Under the pieces are notes generated by a model. It did no database searches, had not been told where the DNA came from, and saw nothing but the letters and a program-made list of their open reading frames with translations. From a virus (taxonomy: Duplodnaviria; Caudoviricetes), in the IMG/VR virus record IMGVR_UViG_3300025016_000004: a stretch of DNA of 64,000 bases; one strand, written 5' to 3'. This document shows positions 3,148 to 30,076 of the stretch, piece by piece (position 1 is the first letter of the stretch; every line of letters begins with the position of its first letter). The position numbers and the translations under genes were made by a program.

Positions 3148-3951
3148 TTAATCCTTTTTTTCGTAAAGAATTACCCTATCATTGATATGGTAACATTCTT
3201 TTTTTGCTAAAGATAACCACCATCTGGATTCATCCATAGATAGCTCTTTTTTATATGTATTGAAAAGGCTTCCTTCTCTATCGTTAACATGTTTGTAAGC
3301 CAATTTTGGGATTACTTTAACTCTGCATGGATTGTAAGTCATTCTTAATAGAAATTCATAAATAAAACTTAATTTAATACTTTCTTTAAGCCCACCATAT
3401 TCTTCATAAGCTTCTTTAAGTACCGCCATTCCATCAATGTTAAAGTTTTGGTATCTTAATAATGCTGCATTATCTAAGACACCAAGTTCATCTGAAAATT
3501 GTGAAGCCCAAACAGCTTCATTCGTAAAGTTCAAAAATTGGTCATTAGGTGTAACATCTAATATCATCGGTAAGAAGATATTTACGTTAGGGTCATCTTT
3601 TCTATATTTAATTACGTTATCAACCCATATAGTAGCTATCTCATCATCTTGTTCAAGGAAAATAAACCATTCTGTTTTAGATTCTTTAACACCTAAATTT
3701 AATTGAGCTTGAAAATTTGTGTCACCTTCATTAGCAACAACCCTAAAATTTAATGTTTTTTCAAACTCACTTTTTAATTTTAATGCTAATTTATAGTCAT
3801 CAGATTCTGCTTTAGCCACCAAAATTAATCCATCTGGTTTTACCTTTTGATTATTAACGCTAGTTACAGCCCTTCTTAAGAAAGTTTCATCAGCTTCAAA
3901 CACTGGAATAATTACACTTATTTCGTTTTTTTCTTTCATCTTATTTTTCAT
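3148..3951 (-). CDS. Glycosyltransferase family 2
   Basis: ISVIIPVFE N-terminal strand, IFLEQDD DxD-like motif. Confidence 0.8.
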   Translation of the reverse strand: MKNKMKEKNEISVIIPVFEADETFLRRAVTSVNNQKVKPDGLILVAKAESDDYKLALKLKSEFEKTLNFRVVANEGDTNFQAQLNLGVKESKTEWFIFLEQDDEIATIWVDNVIKYRKDDPNVNIFLPMILDVTPNDQFLNFTNEAVWASQFSDELGVLDNAALLRYQNFNIDGMAVLKEAYEEYGGLKESIKLSFIYEFLLRMTYNPCRVKVIPKLAYKHVNDREGSLFNTYKKELSMDESRWWLSLAKKECYHINDRVILYEKKD

Positions 3952-6006: not shown

Positions 6007-7812
6007 TTATTTATCAGTGTCTGGTTTTTTATAATTCCTAACCATTTTAGTTATTAATGGATTTCTAACGATATCATTTTCATCAAATTCAAAGAACCCA
6101 ATTTCATCGATATTTCTATGTCTATTCATGGCATCATATAACCCCGTTTTAGTGGCATCATCATATCTATCAGATTGGTCCATATCTCCAGAAACAATAT
6201 ATTTTGAACCGTACCCGATTCTAGTTAAAAGACTTTTCATTTGAGATGGTGACATATTTTGAGCTTCCTCACCGATTAAGATTGAATTATCTAAGGTTTT
6301 ACCTCTAATAAAACCCAAAGGTTCAACCATTAATTCTTTAGAATCTTCTAATTTCCTTCTAGCATCTTCACCTATAATTTTATCAACAATGTCGATTGAT
6401 GCAGCTAAATATGGCTCTAGTTTTTCTTTTAGATTTCCAGGTAAGAATCCTAAGTTCTCTTCAGCTTCAACGGCTGGTTTAACTATTAAAATTTTATTGA
6501 ATGAATTATCTGGGTCTTGAAGTAGTTCTAAAGCTACTGCGATAGCTACGAAAGAATTATGTGTAACTATGAAGTTATCTGTAATATATAAAGAATCTTT
6601 ACTATCAATTGAGATACATTTAGCTTCTGATTGACCTATAGGTTCTATGTCAGTGATATAACGTTTTGGTATATATTTAGTTTTAGGTTTAACTAATTGT
6701 GCTTTTCTTTTTAATTTAAATGGATTAACCTCTGGTGGTAGTGATATAGTTAAGGTGTATGCTTTTTTACATAAAATTTTTTCACCATTATTATCAATAT
6801 ATGAACCTATTTTATCGTTTAACTTAAAAACACCCCCTAAACTATTAACGATAAAACAAACTCCATCAATTAAATCTTTAGATGTGTTAGTGAAAAATGT
6901 GGAAGTACCATTCTTATTTACATAACCATCGGTATCCATTAACCCTCTTAATACTTCTAATCTAACTTTTTTAGTATTAAAAAGGTATTTATCTGGTATT
7001 TTTTTATTTATTGTTGCAATATTTTTTAAGTTTAATTCATTTAAATTATTTAAAATTTCATTATTATTATTTTCACCAATAATTGAGTATTGATACTTAC
7101 CACTTTTTTTATTTATTGTGTGATAATCATTTAATCTTTCGGAAATAAGTTCTACGATTTCAGTATCTTGAGTTGTAAATGTAATTCTATTTTGCGTTAA
7201 ACCACCATCACCTAATAAACATCCTAGAACATAGGGGTCAATAAATAATTCCTTTTCTTCAAATTCAATTGATTTAACTAATGGGATTGTGTGATTTTTA
7301 TCACCTCTACTGGTATTTAAGGTTTCCATTATTTCACTCAAAGGTTTTACATGACCCTTTCTGGGTGAGTAAAATCTTTTACCACCTTTTTTTACTCTAT
7401 AATTTCTATCGTAATATGTGTCAGTTAACCATAAATGCTCATCACAACAATCTGTATAAGAACTATCATTAAAATATACCCTATAAATTTCTTTAATACC
7501 TTGAGGGTGAATTTGAATAACTTTTGTTGGTTTACCTTCAGGGGTTAAAACTTCATCACCAACTCGTATCTCACCCATAGTAGTCCAACCGTTAGGTGTA
7601 AGTATTTTAGAATACAATGGTTGTGCTTTCCCTACGCCAGCAGGCCCAGAACAAAGAACAATTTCTTTCTCTTTAATTAAATTTACAAAATCTTTTTGTT
7701 TAGTGTTTTTGCACTTTAATCTTACCTTGAGTGGTAAGATTTTATTTACAGACCTTTCCTTTGTGGTTGGTTGTGTTGGTGTACTTGTTGTACTTCTTTT
7801 ACCTTTTGCCAT
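6007..7812 (-). CDS. phoH: PhoH-family ATPase containing an intein
   Basis: Walker A GPAGVGK|S split by the intein; LGFLPGNLKEK, RGKTLD, EEAQN, GDMDQSD, IVRNPLI are PhoH motifs. Confidence 0.95.
   Translation of the reverse strand: MAKGKRSTTSTPTQPTTKERSVNKILPLKVRLKCKNTKQKDFVNLIKEKEIVLCSGPAGVGKAQPLYSKILTPNGWTTMGEIRVGDEVLTPEGKPTKVIQIHPQGIKEIYRVYFNDSSYTDCCDEHLWLTDTYYDRNYRVKKGGKRFYSPRKGHVKPLSEIMETLNTSRGDKNHTIPLVKSIEFEEKELFIDPYVLGCLLGDGGLTQNRITFTTQDTEIVELISERLNDYHTINKKSGKYQYSIIGENNNNEILNNLNELNLKNIATINKKIPDKYLFNTKKVRLEVLRGLMDTDGYVNKNGTSTFFTNTSKDLIDGVCFIVNSLGGVFKLNDKIGSYIDNNGEKILCKKAYTLTISLPPEVNPFKLKRKAQLVKPKTKYIPKRYITDIEPIGQSEAKCISIDSKDSLYITDNFIVTHNSFVAIAVALELLQDPDNSFNKILIVKPAVEAEENLGFLPGNLKEKLEPYLAASIDIVDKIIGEDARRKLEDSKELMVEPLGFIRGKTLDNSILIGEEAQNMSPSQMKSLLTRIGYGSKYIVSGDMDQSDRYDDATKTGLYDAMNRHRNIDEIGFFEFDENDIVRNPLITKMVRNYKKPDTDK
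6556..7626 (-). mobile_element. Class 3-type intein (357 aa) with LAGLIDADG endonuclease in PhoH P-loop
   Basis: Starts AQPL, block B DEHLW, block F AKCISID, ends VTHN|S; HEN motifs LGCLLGDGG and LRGLMDTDG. Confidence 0.9.
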
Positions 7813-26807: not shown

Positions 26808-29188
26808 CTACTTTTCAGTGCCAAAAACAAGTTTTTTGTAATATTTAGCACGATTTTCTGTAACTTTATCCATTGAGTAGGTTTCAGCCACAGTATTATA
26901 TAAATTATCCCCAAGTATTTTTATCATCTCAGGGTTTTGTATCAATTTTTTAAGGTATTGATACCATTGTTTATGATTCCTATGAGAATCAACCAATAAA
27001 CCATTTTTAGTTAAATCAATTTCACCACCTTTTTGAAATGCATTTTGAATATCAATTGTATAAGGACCATAATTTTGAGCGATTAACGCCTTTTTATGGA
27101 AACCGCTTTCAATTACCTTTAATTGACTTTTAACTTTATTGAAGGTATGTTCAGTCAACGGTGCTAATGAAATATCAAATAAATTATAATTGGTCGCATA
27201 ATTGGTGATTGGTTTTGTCCAAACTCTTCTGTACGGCTCTTGCATAATGCTAGGGAATTCTTCAGTCACATATCTCAATAAATGCTCTTTATATTCTTTT
27301 GAAATTGTCGTATAATCATTGGTGAATATTTTTTCATATTCACACCAAACTGTTTCGTGTGGTAATATATCTCTTTGAGTTTGTTCACCTGTATCTTTGT
27401 TAATTGAATTAACCTTACCTCTAGTATCAAACCCACATAACACAAATTGTATTTTATCTAATAACCCGTCACCTTTTAATTTAGAAACTAATTGATTTAA
27501 TAATTTTAAATCTGCTAAATGACTATTCCCAATCCAAAATGCTTTACCATTTCGTCTAATATATATTATATGATTTTGAACTTCAACGCAATAAACATTT
27601 CCTTTATAATATTTTTTATATTGGTCATCTGTTTTAATTAAAGGGGTATTTTTATTATGTTTACTAACACTAGGGTGTTTTGTAAAATTAACAACTAATG
27701 AATCAAATTGGTTAGTGATTTTACGGCCTTTAATCATAGACGTTCTTTTACCTCGATTAGTAATGGTGGCTGAAATACCTAATTTTAATGCCATTTCTTG
27801 TAAATCATTGGCTAACGCTGATGAAGAGGTAAAAGCTCTAGTTCTACCATATTTGTTATTTTCAATATGACCATCACCATTAATAAACCATTCTAAAAAT
27901 ATCTTTAATTGCCTAGATGACAAATTTAATATTTCTTTAGGTATAAATTTTTCTGTAGCGGTACCAAAATCAGATAAATAATTCCATAATTGTTTATCAA
28001 AGACTCTCAATTGTTTTTTATCTTTAGTGTATTTTGGGTTAAATCCCATTTTAGTTAACAAATTAAACATATGCTCCAAATAATGATTATCTTTAGATTG
28101 AGCAATACCTACTTGATGTAAACCCTTACTTTTACTAGTCCAACCTTCAGCCATCCAAAAGCCGAAAAACTCTAACCAATCATTCATTTCTATCATAGTA
28201 TCAGTCCCATATTTTTCATATAAATCAACCCCATACTTATTTTTTTTATGTCCTTTTATAAAATTTTCATTATAAGCTTCTTCAAATTCGAACTTTAATT
28301 CAGTATAACTAGCTAAATTAGGTAATATAAAATATTCTACCTCATTACCAATCCAATTAGCATTTTTTCTAACATGAAAATTTTTACCATATATTTTTTC
28401 TGATTGTACTAACCCTAAATTCAATTTTTTATGAGTTAAATTCTTAGCTTCTGATGCGTACATATTATGGTTTGGTGTAACTTCATACTCAATTAACCCA
28501 TTTTTAGCACAATTTAATTCACCATCGAATGGTTCACATATATACCCACTTGGTTTATGATATTCCAAATAATTAGTTTCTGGGTTTAATGTTACTACTT
28601 TTTCAGTCTTATCTAACTCATCAAATCGTTTCCAACCACCATCAGTTAAAATTTCGGTATCTGGAGTCATACAACTCCCACCTAACCAACCAATTCTGAT
28701 TTTATCAGAAGGTTCTGGGTTTGAAGTGTATTGTTTTTCTGTTGGGTCAATAGCATTTGGTAAGACTACAACATTCTTGTTATGTTTTTTAATTTCATTT
28801 GCAAAAATTTCTGTTGTTGTTATAATATTCTCAGCAATTTTTAAATTATTAAGGATTTTTTTATCCAAATCATTATTTTTTATAATATGATATGCTGGGT
28901 GAGTCATATCTGGTAACCAATAATCATCTAAATCCATAACTGTAGGGATTCCTAATGATTTTAATTTTTCTAATAATCCTTCCATTTGGTCATAATTACC
29001 CAAAGCTCTATGATAATGAATTAGGTCGTATTGTTTTAACCAATCGTCATCATGTAATTTTGGCTCATATTCAATATCCACATGAAATTCATCTGGATAT
29101 AATTTTTCTAAATGTAAGTTTGGCTTGGTTGAACGAAAATAGCTCAACTTACCCCAGTACGGTCTGAAGGGACTACAAGTATCTTCAT
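26808..29188 (-). CDS. GT-B (GT4-like) glycosyltransferase with intein; first 14 codons out of frame with the body
   Basis: MKILVVPSDRTGVS* (29188-29144) then SYFRSTKP... in another frame; MDLDDYW, PNAID, GWLGGS|SH, KSQLKVIESG. Confidence 0.8.
27525..28673 (-). mobile_element. Intein (383 aa) with LAGLIDADG endonuclease in glycosyltransferase
   Basis: Starts CMTPDTEILT, VTPNH block B, ends WIGN|S; FFGFWMAEG and FLEWFINGDG. Confidence 0.9.
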
Positions 29189-29207
29189 TTTTTGACCTAC
29201 TGGGGTA
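29150..29207 (-). promoter_or_regulatory. RNA hairpin enclosing the glycosyltransferase start codon
   Basis: TACCCCAGTA-GGTC pairs with GACC-G-TACTGGGGTA (14 bp, 1 bulge); begins at the base after the HEG stop. Confidence 0.7.
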
Positions 29208-29975
29208 TCAATTTTGTTTGTTTTCATAATATTTTATTATTTCGTTTATTAGTTCTGGGTTTCTTTTATAATCACTTTCCCAAATAACTTTACTATTATA
29301 ACCATTTTTTTTCGCTAAGTAAAGCTTTTTATTATCACATAACCAAATTTCTTTGGCTGTTTTACTTTTTTTCTTATGCCAATACTCAGCATTATATTTT
29401 TTTGGGTTACAATGCCAATAATCACCATTATACTCTATTAATAAATTAAATTGTGGGACGTAAATATCAAAAATTTTACTTCCTATTCTATAATTAGGTT
29501 CACAATTAATACCTACTTCACTTAATTTATTTATTATTTCATCTTCAGCTTTAGACCTATTATAACTTTTTAATTCACCATTCATTATCCTTTCTTTCAT
29601 CAACTTACTCATTTTAACCCTAACACCTTCCATTTCACCACTTGCCCATAATTTTTTTTTCATATCACTAAACATTTTTCTATATTTTGGTTTAGACATG
29701 TGATTACTGGTGGAAACCCCTATTTTTGATTTACTTATCTTGTTTTTAGTTTCTTCAGTATGGGTTTTATTATAAAATGGGTTACCAACACCTTTTTGTT
29801 TTTTTAATGAACATTTTTTACATATACCTTTCTTTTTTAAATTTCTAGCTAAATAATATTCTTTTGAGGCTTCAACTAATATTTTATTTTTACATAAATG
29901 GCATTTGTAAAAAGAATACCATTTCTGGTTATCAACATTAAATTTGAAGTGTTTATATTTTTCATTTGATTCCAT
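29208..29975 (-). mobile_element. Free-standing Vsr-like/EDxHD-type homing endonuclease with NUMOD3-like repeats
   Basis: GNPFYNKTHTEETKNKIS, SKAEDEI, FDIYVP...IEYNGDYWH, KVIWESD. Confidence 0.8.
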
Positions 29976-30004: not shown

Positions 30005-30076
30005 TTATAAAAAGTTTAAGTATGATACACCTGTTCTGTCACTTGGGACAACTAAGATTTTTATTTTTTTACTCAT
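30005..30076 (-). pseudogene. Stranded original 5' end of the glycosyltransferase
   Basis: MSKKIKILVVPSDRTGVSYLNFL*; KILVVPSDRTGVSY is identical to the downstream copy. Confidence 0.88.

Follow-up and report, generated by a model that had tools for sequence, protein, structure and literature searches.

A 64,000-nt stretch of tailed-phage DNA (Duplodnaviria; Caudoviricetes), IMG/VR virus record IMGVR_UViG_3300025016_000004 and referred to here as the window, carries a glycosyltransferase gene whose 5' end is interrupted by a stop codon and a short coding gap behind a free-standing homing endonuclease gene. Comparison with related loci makes it quite probable that this gap is crossed by a short-range programmed translational bypass (a stop-hop), and that the bypass site travels on a mobile homing-endonuclease cassette. 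The same plan was found in a family of 47 distinct variants, in which a stop codon follows directly on the take-off codon, a matched landing codon lies a few nucleotides on, and a strong RNA hairpin abuts the site from upstream.

The interrupted gene of the window

In the window, the leader open reading frame (ORF) ends in GTA AGT TGA and the body resumes with AGC TAT TTT CGT 5 nt on (coordinates in Table 1). A preliminary description of this DNA had read the site in the same way and had proposed a hairpin-assisted hop of tRNA-Ser across the stop, from AGU to AGC. All of its statements on the sequence hold, and the proposed hop gains support from the comparative family data presented below. 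The +5 slide would yield exactly the product of the uninterrupted homologs, M..KIKVLVVPSDRTGVSYFRSTKP (IMG/VR), as had been suggested. The extra 5 nt are real: in separately assembled Logan contigs from four runs, positions 28900-29400 show 0 differences and 0 gaps at a word depth of 17-79, although these aquifer runs may include the source sample. Upstream of the endonuclease ORF lies a short remnant that the preliminary description took for the ancestral N-terminus, and positions 30076-30005 do match the N-termini of intact homologs. By its sequence, this remnant is the original start of the gene, displaced upstream by insertion of the cassette.

The leader of the window comprises 27 aa, MKTNKIDTPVGQKMKILVVPSDRTGVS. 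Its in-frame ATG at 29227-29225 overlaps the 3' end of the endonuclease gene, within the last codons. The preliminary description had instead placed the start at the AUG in the hairpin loop (29188). Leader ORFs of all relatives start about 18 nt upstream of the 5' arm of the hairpin, ATG 29227 stands at the equivalent place, and the nearest leaders, L195 and L210 (L numbers designate loci of the comparison), also contain an internal ...QKMKILVV... methionine. Because the start position is common to the relatives and the internal methionine recurs in L195 and L210, ATG 29227 is probably the true start and AUG 29188 an internal methionine. With this start the hairpin lies inside the ORF and would be translated as a whole. 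The earlier claim on the hairpin stands for its pairing and its position beside AGT, and probably fails for its start codon, the family-conserved start being ATG 29227.

A family of gapped alleles

The starting set consisted of 80 loci found by protein homology, 4 of which (three distinct variants) were without a continuous N-terminus. Further variants were obtained by scanning viral and metagenome contigs with a pattern of the conserved 3' arm, and from loci found through the endonuclease alone. Together, the viral and metagenome contigs yield a family of 47 distinct variants, which fall into 18 junction types. Every one of these variants has both the stop and a gap.

The members share a common plan. 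An ATG-started leader of 26-29 aa is composed of an N-terminal extension, which encodes the 5' arm of the hairpin, and the enzyme's own ...VLV.PSD..GV(G/S); it ends in a take-off codon GGT, GGC, AGT or AGC, followed at once by TAA or TGA, 0-7 further bases, the landing codon and the (K/Y/F/A)(F/Y)RS body. Where leader residues are conserved, they either form part of the enzyme motif or follow from the sequence of the 5' arm. TAA or TGA stands directly 3' of the take-off codon in 47/47 variants, TAA being the commonest stop. Gaps, counted with the stop, measure 2 (the window), 3, 4, 5, 6, 7, 8 and 10 nt, which corresponds to hops of 5-13 nt, with +6 in most relatives. The landing codon of the window shares its A with the stop TGA, and its hop of 5 nt is the shortest of the 18 junction types. 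Nine junction types are in frame, six shift the frame by 2 and three by 1. In all of them, a move from the take-off codon to the landing codon brings back exactly the spacing seen in 54 intact homologs.

The choice of codons follows a simple rule. Take-off and landing codons are of the same box (GGN/GGN or AGY/AGY) in 17 of the 18 junction types, and in 46 of the 47 variants no other same-box triplet, whatever its frame, comes between take-off and landing codon; the AGC of the window is likewise the first AGY triplet 3' of its take-off codon. Five matches to the search pattern among 185,579 prokaryote genomes lie in unrelated sequence (four GC-rich, one of 41% GC) and were attributed to chance, and about a dozen GC-rich matches from the metagenome scan and two from the viral scan were discarded for the same reason. 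A GACCCCCAC run downstream in K-type genes was considered as a hop signal and rejected, as it is also present in intact alleles.

A hairpin that accompanies the gap and covaries

The 68 nt ending at the take-off codon fold with a minimum free energy of -28.9 +/- 2.1 kcal/mol in the 47 hop alleles versus -6.6 +/- 2.1 kcal/mol in the 54 intact alleles, with no overlap between the two groups. The hairpin is present in 47/47 hop alleles and 0/54 intact alleles, and intact alleles with a homologous endonuclease directly upstream are still without it. The hairpin thus goes with the gap, not with the endonuclease. Among 107 distinct sites, neither a hairpin-bearing leader without a stop nor a stop without a hairpin was found.

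In the window, the hairpin comprises 14 bp with one bulged G and an apical stem; its last pair lies directly beside AGT, and its 3' arm coincides with the codons DRTGV. The 111-nt hairpin region folds at -34.2 kcal/mol (z = -5.5), and 0/200 shuffles fold as well. Across the family the outer stem has 12-16 bp, and the end of its base lies anywhere from 2 nt before the first base of the take-off codon (-2) to the second base of that codon (+1).

Covariation was evaluated on the gapless sub-alignments A4 and A5 and on per-sequence folds. In the mixed alignments A1 and A3 no single consensus structure fits, and two leader subtypes differ by a 1-nt register (bulge versus mismatch). In A4, 80.6% of cells pair versus 36-47% with the partners slid, and the covariation score is 0.187 versus at most 0.067, a score that 0/500 shuffles reach. 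One pair of this alignment, 10-67, occurs as UA (8), AU (6), CG (3) and GC (1). Alignment A5 gave 82% pairing versus 34-46%, with modest covariation because of the 1-nt register difference between leader subtypes. The partner of the third base of the Thr codon varies with it (U-A, A-U, G-C, G-U, C-G), and compensatory variants include GGGG/CCCC to GGAG/CUCC and CGU to AGA with a matching 5' arm (AGA/UCU).

Function of the interrupted enzyme and selection on it

The long frame is a predicted GT-B, GT4-like glycosyltransferase. Its body matches a PHROG glycosyltransferase family with E = 1e-18, and the AlphaFold2 (AF2) model of an intact homolog, ~75% identical over the N-terminal extein, has a predicted local distance difference test score (pLDDT) of 93.6 and MshA, GlgM, BshA and PglA as its best Protein Data Bank matches. 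In this model, strand beta-1 covers residues 5-10 and helix alpha-1 runs from residue 17, both in the N-terminal Rossmann domain. The junction site falls at the beta-1/alpha-1 boundary, and PSD, G16 and R21 are invariant in the family. According to the model, the body alone would lack the core strand beta-1 and the Gly-rich loop.

Body ORFs are complete wherever the contig reaches their end, with 377-410 codons, or ~776 with an intein. Ratios of dN/dS between hop-bearing genes are 0.04-0.23 at dS 0.3-2, and for pairs that share a junction type and have diverged to dS 0.3-0.9 they are 0.04-0.10. Judged by these ratios, the interrupted genes are in use and their bodies are under purifying selection.

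The endonuclease and mobility of the cassette

The 255-aa ORF matches Pfam NUMOD3 with 30.7 bits (cut-off 20.4) and the PHROG 'homing endonuclease' family phrog_3339 with E = 4e-13; a weak match to REase_MTES_1575 is below cut-off. A sequence search found no relative of the endonuclease with a solved structure. Homologs of the endonuclease lie directly upstream of the same glycosyltransferase gene in many contigs, and in 19 of 32 pattern-found variants.

Several observations speak for movement of the element. Hop and intact alleles alternate in a tree built on the first 150 residues of the body, in which well-supported branches require at least 14 changes. The sister pairs L097/L118, L166/L044 and L193/L111 are ~98% identical from 20-100 nt past the landing codon, and their leaders are unrelated or heavily recoded; on sequence comparison, such sharp boundaries of identity are what a co-conversion tract would leave. 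L174 derives from the L167 type by deletion of the endonuclease and keeps the last ~130 nt of the endonuclease gene together with the leader. In L162 the displaced old 5' end was found too, broken after the same Tyr codon as the remnant of the window. The two remnants mark the insertion point, so the gap and the landing codon came with the cassette. With its presence/absence polymorphism and co-converted flanks, the element is classified here as a free-standing homing-endonuclease cassette (intron-less homing). The hop leader appears to be a speciality of one endonuclease sub-lineage, because the endonuclease family also adjoins intact alleles without the hairpin.

Other arrangements of the endonuclease were also noted. 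Distant relatives (33-50% identity) stand directly upstream of intact glycosyltransferase genes in L110, L111, L113, L114, L117-L120, L123, L130 and L155; these loci are without leader extension, hairpin and gap, and the ATG of the gene often overlaps the endonuclease stop. In L132, L133, L135, L142, L143, L147, L154, L158, L160 and others, proteins with the C-terminal nuclease domain are encoded ahead of another gene, whose product begins ...(R)KFI.(T/S)I.V.(D/E)WE(I/V)(E/L)TD.GW... In the endonuclease-free hop allele L051/L177, an internally repetitive ORF on the opposite strand (~3300-3790) occupies the usual place of the endonuclease.

Proposed mechanism

From these comparisons we infer the following course of the hop. 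Ribosomes would start at ATG 29227, translate the 27-codon leader while unwinding the hairpin, and pause when AGU occupies the P site and UGA the A site. The peptidyl-tRNA-Ser(GCU) would then unpair from AGU, the mRNA would slide by 5 nt, and the tRNA would re-pair with AGC. Decoding would resume at UAU and give one protein, ...DRTGVS-YFRSTKP..., with spacing identical to that of the uninterrupted homologs. Family-wide, the hopping tRNA would be Ser-GCU in the window and a Gly tRNA in most relatives, and the mRNA would move 5-13 nt to the first cognate triplet.

At take-off, the 3' arm of the hairpin would lie in the mRNA exit path, with the apical stem and the 5' arm already outside the ribosome. 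Refolding of the hairpin behind the ribosome most likely gives the forward pull, and zipping of the outer stem would account approximately for the distances observed. The conserved GGGG (or GGAG) two bases upstream of take-off may add a Shine-Dalgarno (SD)-like push. The proposed pull matches published work, in which pairing of the exiting mRNA was put forward as the driver of forward movement in gene 60 bypassing (10.1101/2024.12.09.627546) and refolding hairpins just upstream of the shift site were found to favour forward frame movement on 70S ribosomes (PMC6321510).

The target of the endonuclease presumably spans the invariant GV(G/S)(K/Y)FRS codons. The recoded leader and the untranslated bases probably destroy this target, which would make the cassette immune to its own enzyme and leave the invariant protein motif unchanged. 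On balance, we lean towards the view that a stop-triggered short hop, driven by a refolding exit-side hairpin, is a portable recoding module used by homing endonucleases for self-immunity. If this is true, these endonucleases break up their own DNA target within the codons of an invariant motif while the protein stays the same, and the bypass of gene 60 is not unique but belongs to a widespread class of phage 'hop cassettes'. The natural gap series, with hops of 5-13 nt, would also titrate how far pairing of the exiting mRNA can drag the ribosome. More generally, the 18 junction types with their covarying stems bear on the release of peptidyl-tRNA, the forward force from exiting-mRNA pairing and the choice of landing site, and the family lends weight to the view that bypass elements arise in evolution as a means of immunity for homing endonucleases. 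Gene callers will label such glycosyltransferases as truncated or as pseudogenes; the callable ORF of the window starts at TTG, which is probably not the real start.

Points against a bypass and rival explanations

A number of points weigh against a programmed bypass. Unassisted stop-hops in Escherichia coli constructs are reportedly about 1% efficient, so that a useful efficiency rests on the proposed stimulators. The junction of L171, AGT TAA GGC, breaks the matched-codon rule (Ser versus Gly); this locus may be a recent recombinant, may be a low-efficiency site or may be decoded differently. As a separate observation, the body ORF of L171 (equal to L054 and L105; IMGVR_UViG_3300016484_000411) is intact over >420 codons despite the mismatch. 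The junction of the window, AGT-TG-AGC, is a singleton found in this phage population alone, its insertion looks recent, with the old 5' end intact, and an in-frame TTG is present; because of these features, selection after insertion cannot be shown for the window allele. The match of take-off and landing codons could partly reflect recombination of the cassette with a resident Gly or Ser codon, and landing from GGU on GGA needs a wobble mismatch if tRNA-Gly(GCC) hops. In addition, the 3' arm sequence was part of the search pattern for 31 variants; the 16 variants found via protein homology alone have the same structure. No cultured phage with the element was found, nor any DNA match in the GenBank phage collection, and phage matches at the protein level were mostly to the intein, the sole match to the extein being distant (35%) and from an uncultured huge phage.

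Two further points of this kind concern conventional recoding, since the shifted frame is open across the gap in every frame-changing junction, and the nine in-frame junction types are in principle readable through. Together with an A-site stop and a G-rich, SD-like run 2 nt upstream, which resembles the +1 site of prfB, they favour a mixture of events: a -1 frameshift in the window (...GVS-LS-YFR...) and -1/+1 frameshifts or readthrough elsewhere, adding 1-4 residues to the loop. Such a mixture is nevertheless unlikely, as it needs three mechanisms in close relatives with one conserved element and places variable residues in the most conserved motif of the family, at the beta-1/alpha-1 junction. 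The P-site tRNA would re-pair poorly after a shift to the -1 or +1 frame (AGU to AAG, GGU to UGG, GGC to GCU), the landing on the first same-box triplet is left unexplained, and UAA, which is so common in the family, is reportedly the least leaky stop. Simpler forms of conventional recoding were rejected. For a programmed frameshift in one direction, the frame relations 0, +1 and +2 all occur, and AGU, GGU and GGC offer no slippery re-pairing; for stop readthrough or a reassigned code, the window body is out of frame with its leader, half of the junction types change the frame, and both TAA and TGA are used. A split gene is a slightly weaker candidate than the mixture. Here the 27-aa leader peptide would be followed by a body initiated separately at TTG 29147 after the UGA, with the body working alone or the two chains associating. 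Reinitiation at this TTG had been offered as an alternative in the preliminary description and proves feasible in the window alone, where stop and TTG share bases (UUGA) with a G-rich stretch 4 nt upstream, and the body frame TTG (29147-45) AGC TAT TTT CGT is open down to 26808. Homing endonucleases do split phage genes into two functional ORFs, as in T4 39/60 and Aeh1 nrdA (10.1101/2022.08.31.505936). However, the TTG is in frame in the window only, owing to the 2-nt gap; the same GTTGA is out of frame in L178, L186 and L206, and in most variants the body frame offers no ATG, GTG or TTG over the 5 to >40 codons that follow the junction. A body beginning at Ser18/Tyr19 would, by the AF2 model, be without the central strand and loop of the Rossmann domain named above, and a split gene has no role for the matched codons or the gap-linked hairpin.

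It is improbable that the gene of the window phage was recently inactivated by arrival of the cassette, the codons and the hairpin being leftovers without a decoding role there. The old 5' end still intact upstream suggests a recent event, the exact junction is confined to this phage population, and sister hop and intact genes are up to ~98% identical, by which some insertions are young. Against this, degraded bodies were seen in 0/47 variants, pairs sharing a junction keep the low dN/dS given above over considerable divergence, and the hairpin is maintained by compensatory changes. Leaders also persist after loss of the endonuclease (L174), and the 777-codon body of the window is fully open, intein included. 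Removal of the gap before translation, by RNA cleavage and ligation, by editing or in a DNA sub-population, is the most doubtful of these proposals and very improbable. The directly repeated flanking codon would also be compatible with an ambiguous excision junction, and the DNA and RNA contigs used cannot reveal rare variants. The junction of L174 is spanned by contigs from three RNA (metatranscriptome) libraries, and these contigs keep the stop and the whole gap, by which removal at the RNA level is disfavoured. They concern the relative L174, not the window, and speak for the presence of the gapped form without telling how it is translated. The four DNA assemblies contain no variant at the window site, no known mechanism excises 5-13 nt, and the hairpin does not enclose the gap but precedes it. 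A short bypass is the single explanation that fits all members of the family.

Comparison with known systems

Programmed bypassing is known almost wholly from one model, T4 gene 60. The bypass of gene 60 and MobA form one mobile element, in which the bypass insert, not synonymous polymorphisms, blocks nicking by MobA, and Manning and Atkins stated that the gene 60 cassette 'remains unique' and regarded its origin as a puzzle (10.1101/2022.08.31.505936). The parallel to T4 gene 60/mobA drawn in the preliminary description is borne out as far as an analogous mobile cassette is concerned, and does not extend to homology with the gene 60 cassette. Both systems combine matched codons with a stop directly after take-off and untranslated bases in a highly conserved protein motif, and both link a free-standing homing endonuclease to the bypass as a mobile unit, the bypass being kept after loss of the endonuclease. 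In both, the insert probably protects the element from its own nuclease, and forward movement has been linked to an mRNA structure on the 5' side of take-off.

The differences are equally clear. The gap of gene 60 is 50 nt with a take-off (A-site) stem-loop and an internal SD-like GAG, whereas the gaps of 2-10 nt found here leave no room for a stem-loop. The family leader shows no similarity to the nascent-peptide signal of gene 60, and the site is 27 codons from the start. The 5' hairpin of gene 60 lies 9 nt upstream and is poorly conserved, in contrast to the strong, strictly conserved hairpin abutting take-off in the family. The host gene encodes the topoisomerase II large subunit (Toprim domain) in T4 and a GT4-like glycosyltransferase here, and the endonuclease here, with NUMOD3 and a Vsr/REase-like domain, differs in type from MobA. 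The two elements share no sequence homology. On these comparisons, the element is analogous to the gene 60/MobA cassette and not a member of that family. It would represent an independent natural invention, with another gene, another endonuclease and simpler signals (stop, matched codons, abutting upstream hairpin).

Forward stop-hops of '+5 and +6' in E. coli constructs were reportedly described by Weiss, Dunn, Atkins and Gesteland in 1987, and tRNA hopping by O'Connor in 1989. In those test constructs, peptidyl-tRNA moves between synonymous codons flanking a stop over 5-6 nt, as proposed for the +5 of the window and the +6 of most relatives. The construct hops are synthetic, low-level and without stimulators, whereas those of the family would be natural, conserved, needed for an intact enzyme, paired with a hairpin and up to 13 nt long. 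The family is the natural counterpart of these +5/+6 stop-hops. The term 'short distance bypassing/stop hopping' is used in 10.1101/2024.12.09.627546, and full-text searches of the literature found no description of this glycosyltransferase hop family.

Two other natural coding gaps invite comparison. The 'byps' of Magnusiomyces, longer mobile inserts in mitochondrial genes, were reportedly described by Lang in 2014 and are likewise crossed between matched codons. In the terminase gene of Streptomyces phage phiHau3, a natural gap is also crossed between matched codons, and the junction peptide was shown by mass spectrometry; this bypass differs in having a rare UUA 'hungry' codon instead of a stop, and a homing endonuclease is not mentioned (PMC10732093). 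Neither phiHau3 nor the byps have an abutting upstream hairpin in an N-terminal leader.

In the +1 frameshift of prfB, which encodes release factor 2 (RF2), the A-site stop serves as a pause, and the forward push comes from a G-rich element situated 2-3 nt 5' of the P-site codon. A stop pause and an upstream duplex would be common to prfB and the family, and the SD:anti-SD duplex and a refolding hairpin act alike on 70S ribosomes (PMC6321510). The shift in prfB is one base in one direction with overlapping re-pairing, unlike the family, where the tRNA would land on a non-overlapping codon 5-13 nt away and in all three frames.

Other features of the window

Table 1. Features of the interrupted glycosyltransferase locus in the window.
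Feature	Position	Strand	Description
5'-end remnant of glycosyltransferase gene	30005..30076	-	72-nt ORF; MSKKIKILVVPSDRTGVSY, then LNFL (four foreign codons) and TAA; upstream of endonuclease ORF
Homing endonuclease ORF, free-standing	29208..29975	-	255 aa; NUMOD3 and Vsr/PD-(D/E)xK-like C-terminal nuclease domain
Leader ORF	29144..29227	-	Probable start ATG 29227, 27 codons, TGA 29146-29144; N-terminal extension, beta-strand 1 and Gly-rich loop
Two-tier RNA hairpin inside leader ORF	29150..29208	-	5' arm 29208-29194; apical stem ~29187-29165; 3' arm 29164-29150
Putative recoding site AGT-TG-AGC	29142..29149	-	Take-off AGT 29149-47; stop TGA 29146-44; landing AGC 29144-42
Predicted GT-B/GT4-like glycosyltransferase body	26808..29141	-	Resumes at TAT 29141-39 (Tyr); 777 codons including intein
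Intein with LAGLIDADG endonuclease domain	27525..28673	-	383 aa, between GGS and SHL; Pfam LAGLIDADG_3, 43.8 bits
7-bp hairpin (GUUGAGC...GUUCAAC)	29128..29148	-	Covers stop, landing codon and first body codons

The boundaries of the intein were set by the consensus of intact homologs, ...GWLGGSSHLHDL..., and with it one glycosyltransferase gene hosts two different selfish elements, the endonuclease cassette and the intein. The penultimate residue of the intein is Gly (...WIGN, followed by S) and not the usual His. An insert of intein size was also observed in the same gene of L162 (body ~776 codons). The small downstream hairpin at the take-off site of the window (29148-29128) was found to have no conserved counterpart in the relatives; it is specific to the window, and its meaning is uncertain.

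The phage of the window is a large tailed phage, with tail sheath and PhoH-like genes in the window, and its population was seen in groundwater and aquifer metagenomes. No tRNA genes were found within the window. A 601-aa ORF at 6007-7812 on the minus strand matches a PhoH-like family with its C-terminal part and P-loop families (terminase, primase, helicase-loader) with its N-terminal part, and its product may be a fusion or a two-domain NTPase.

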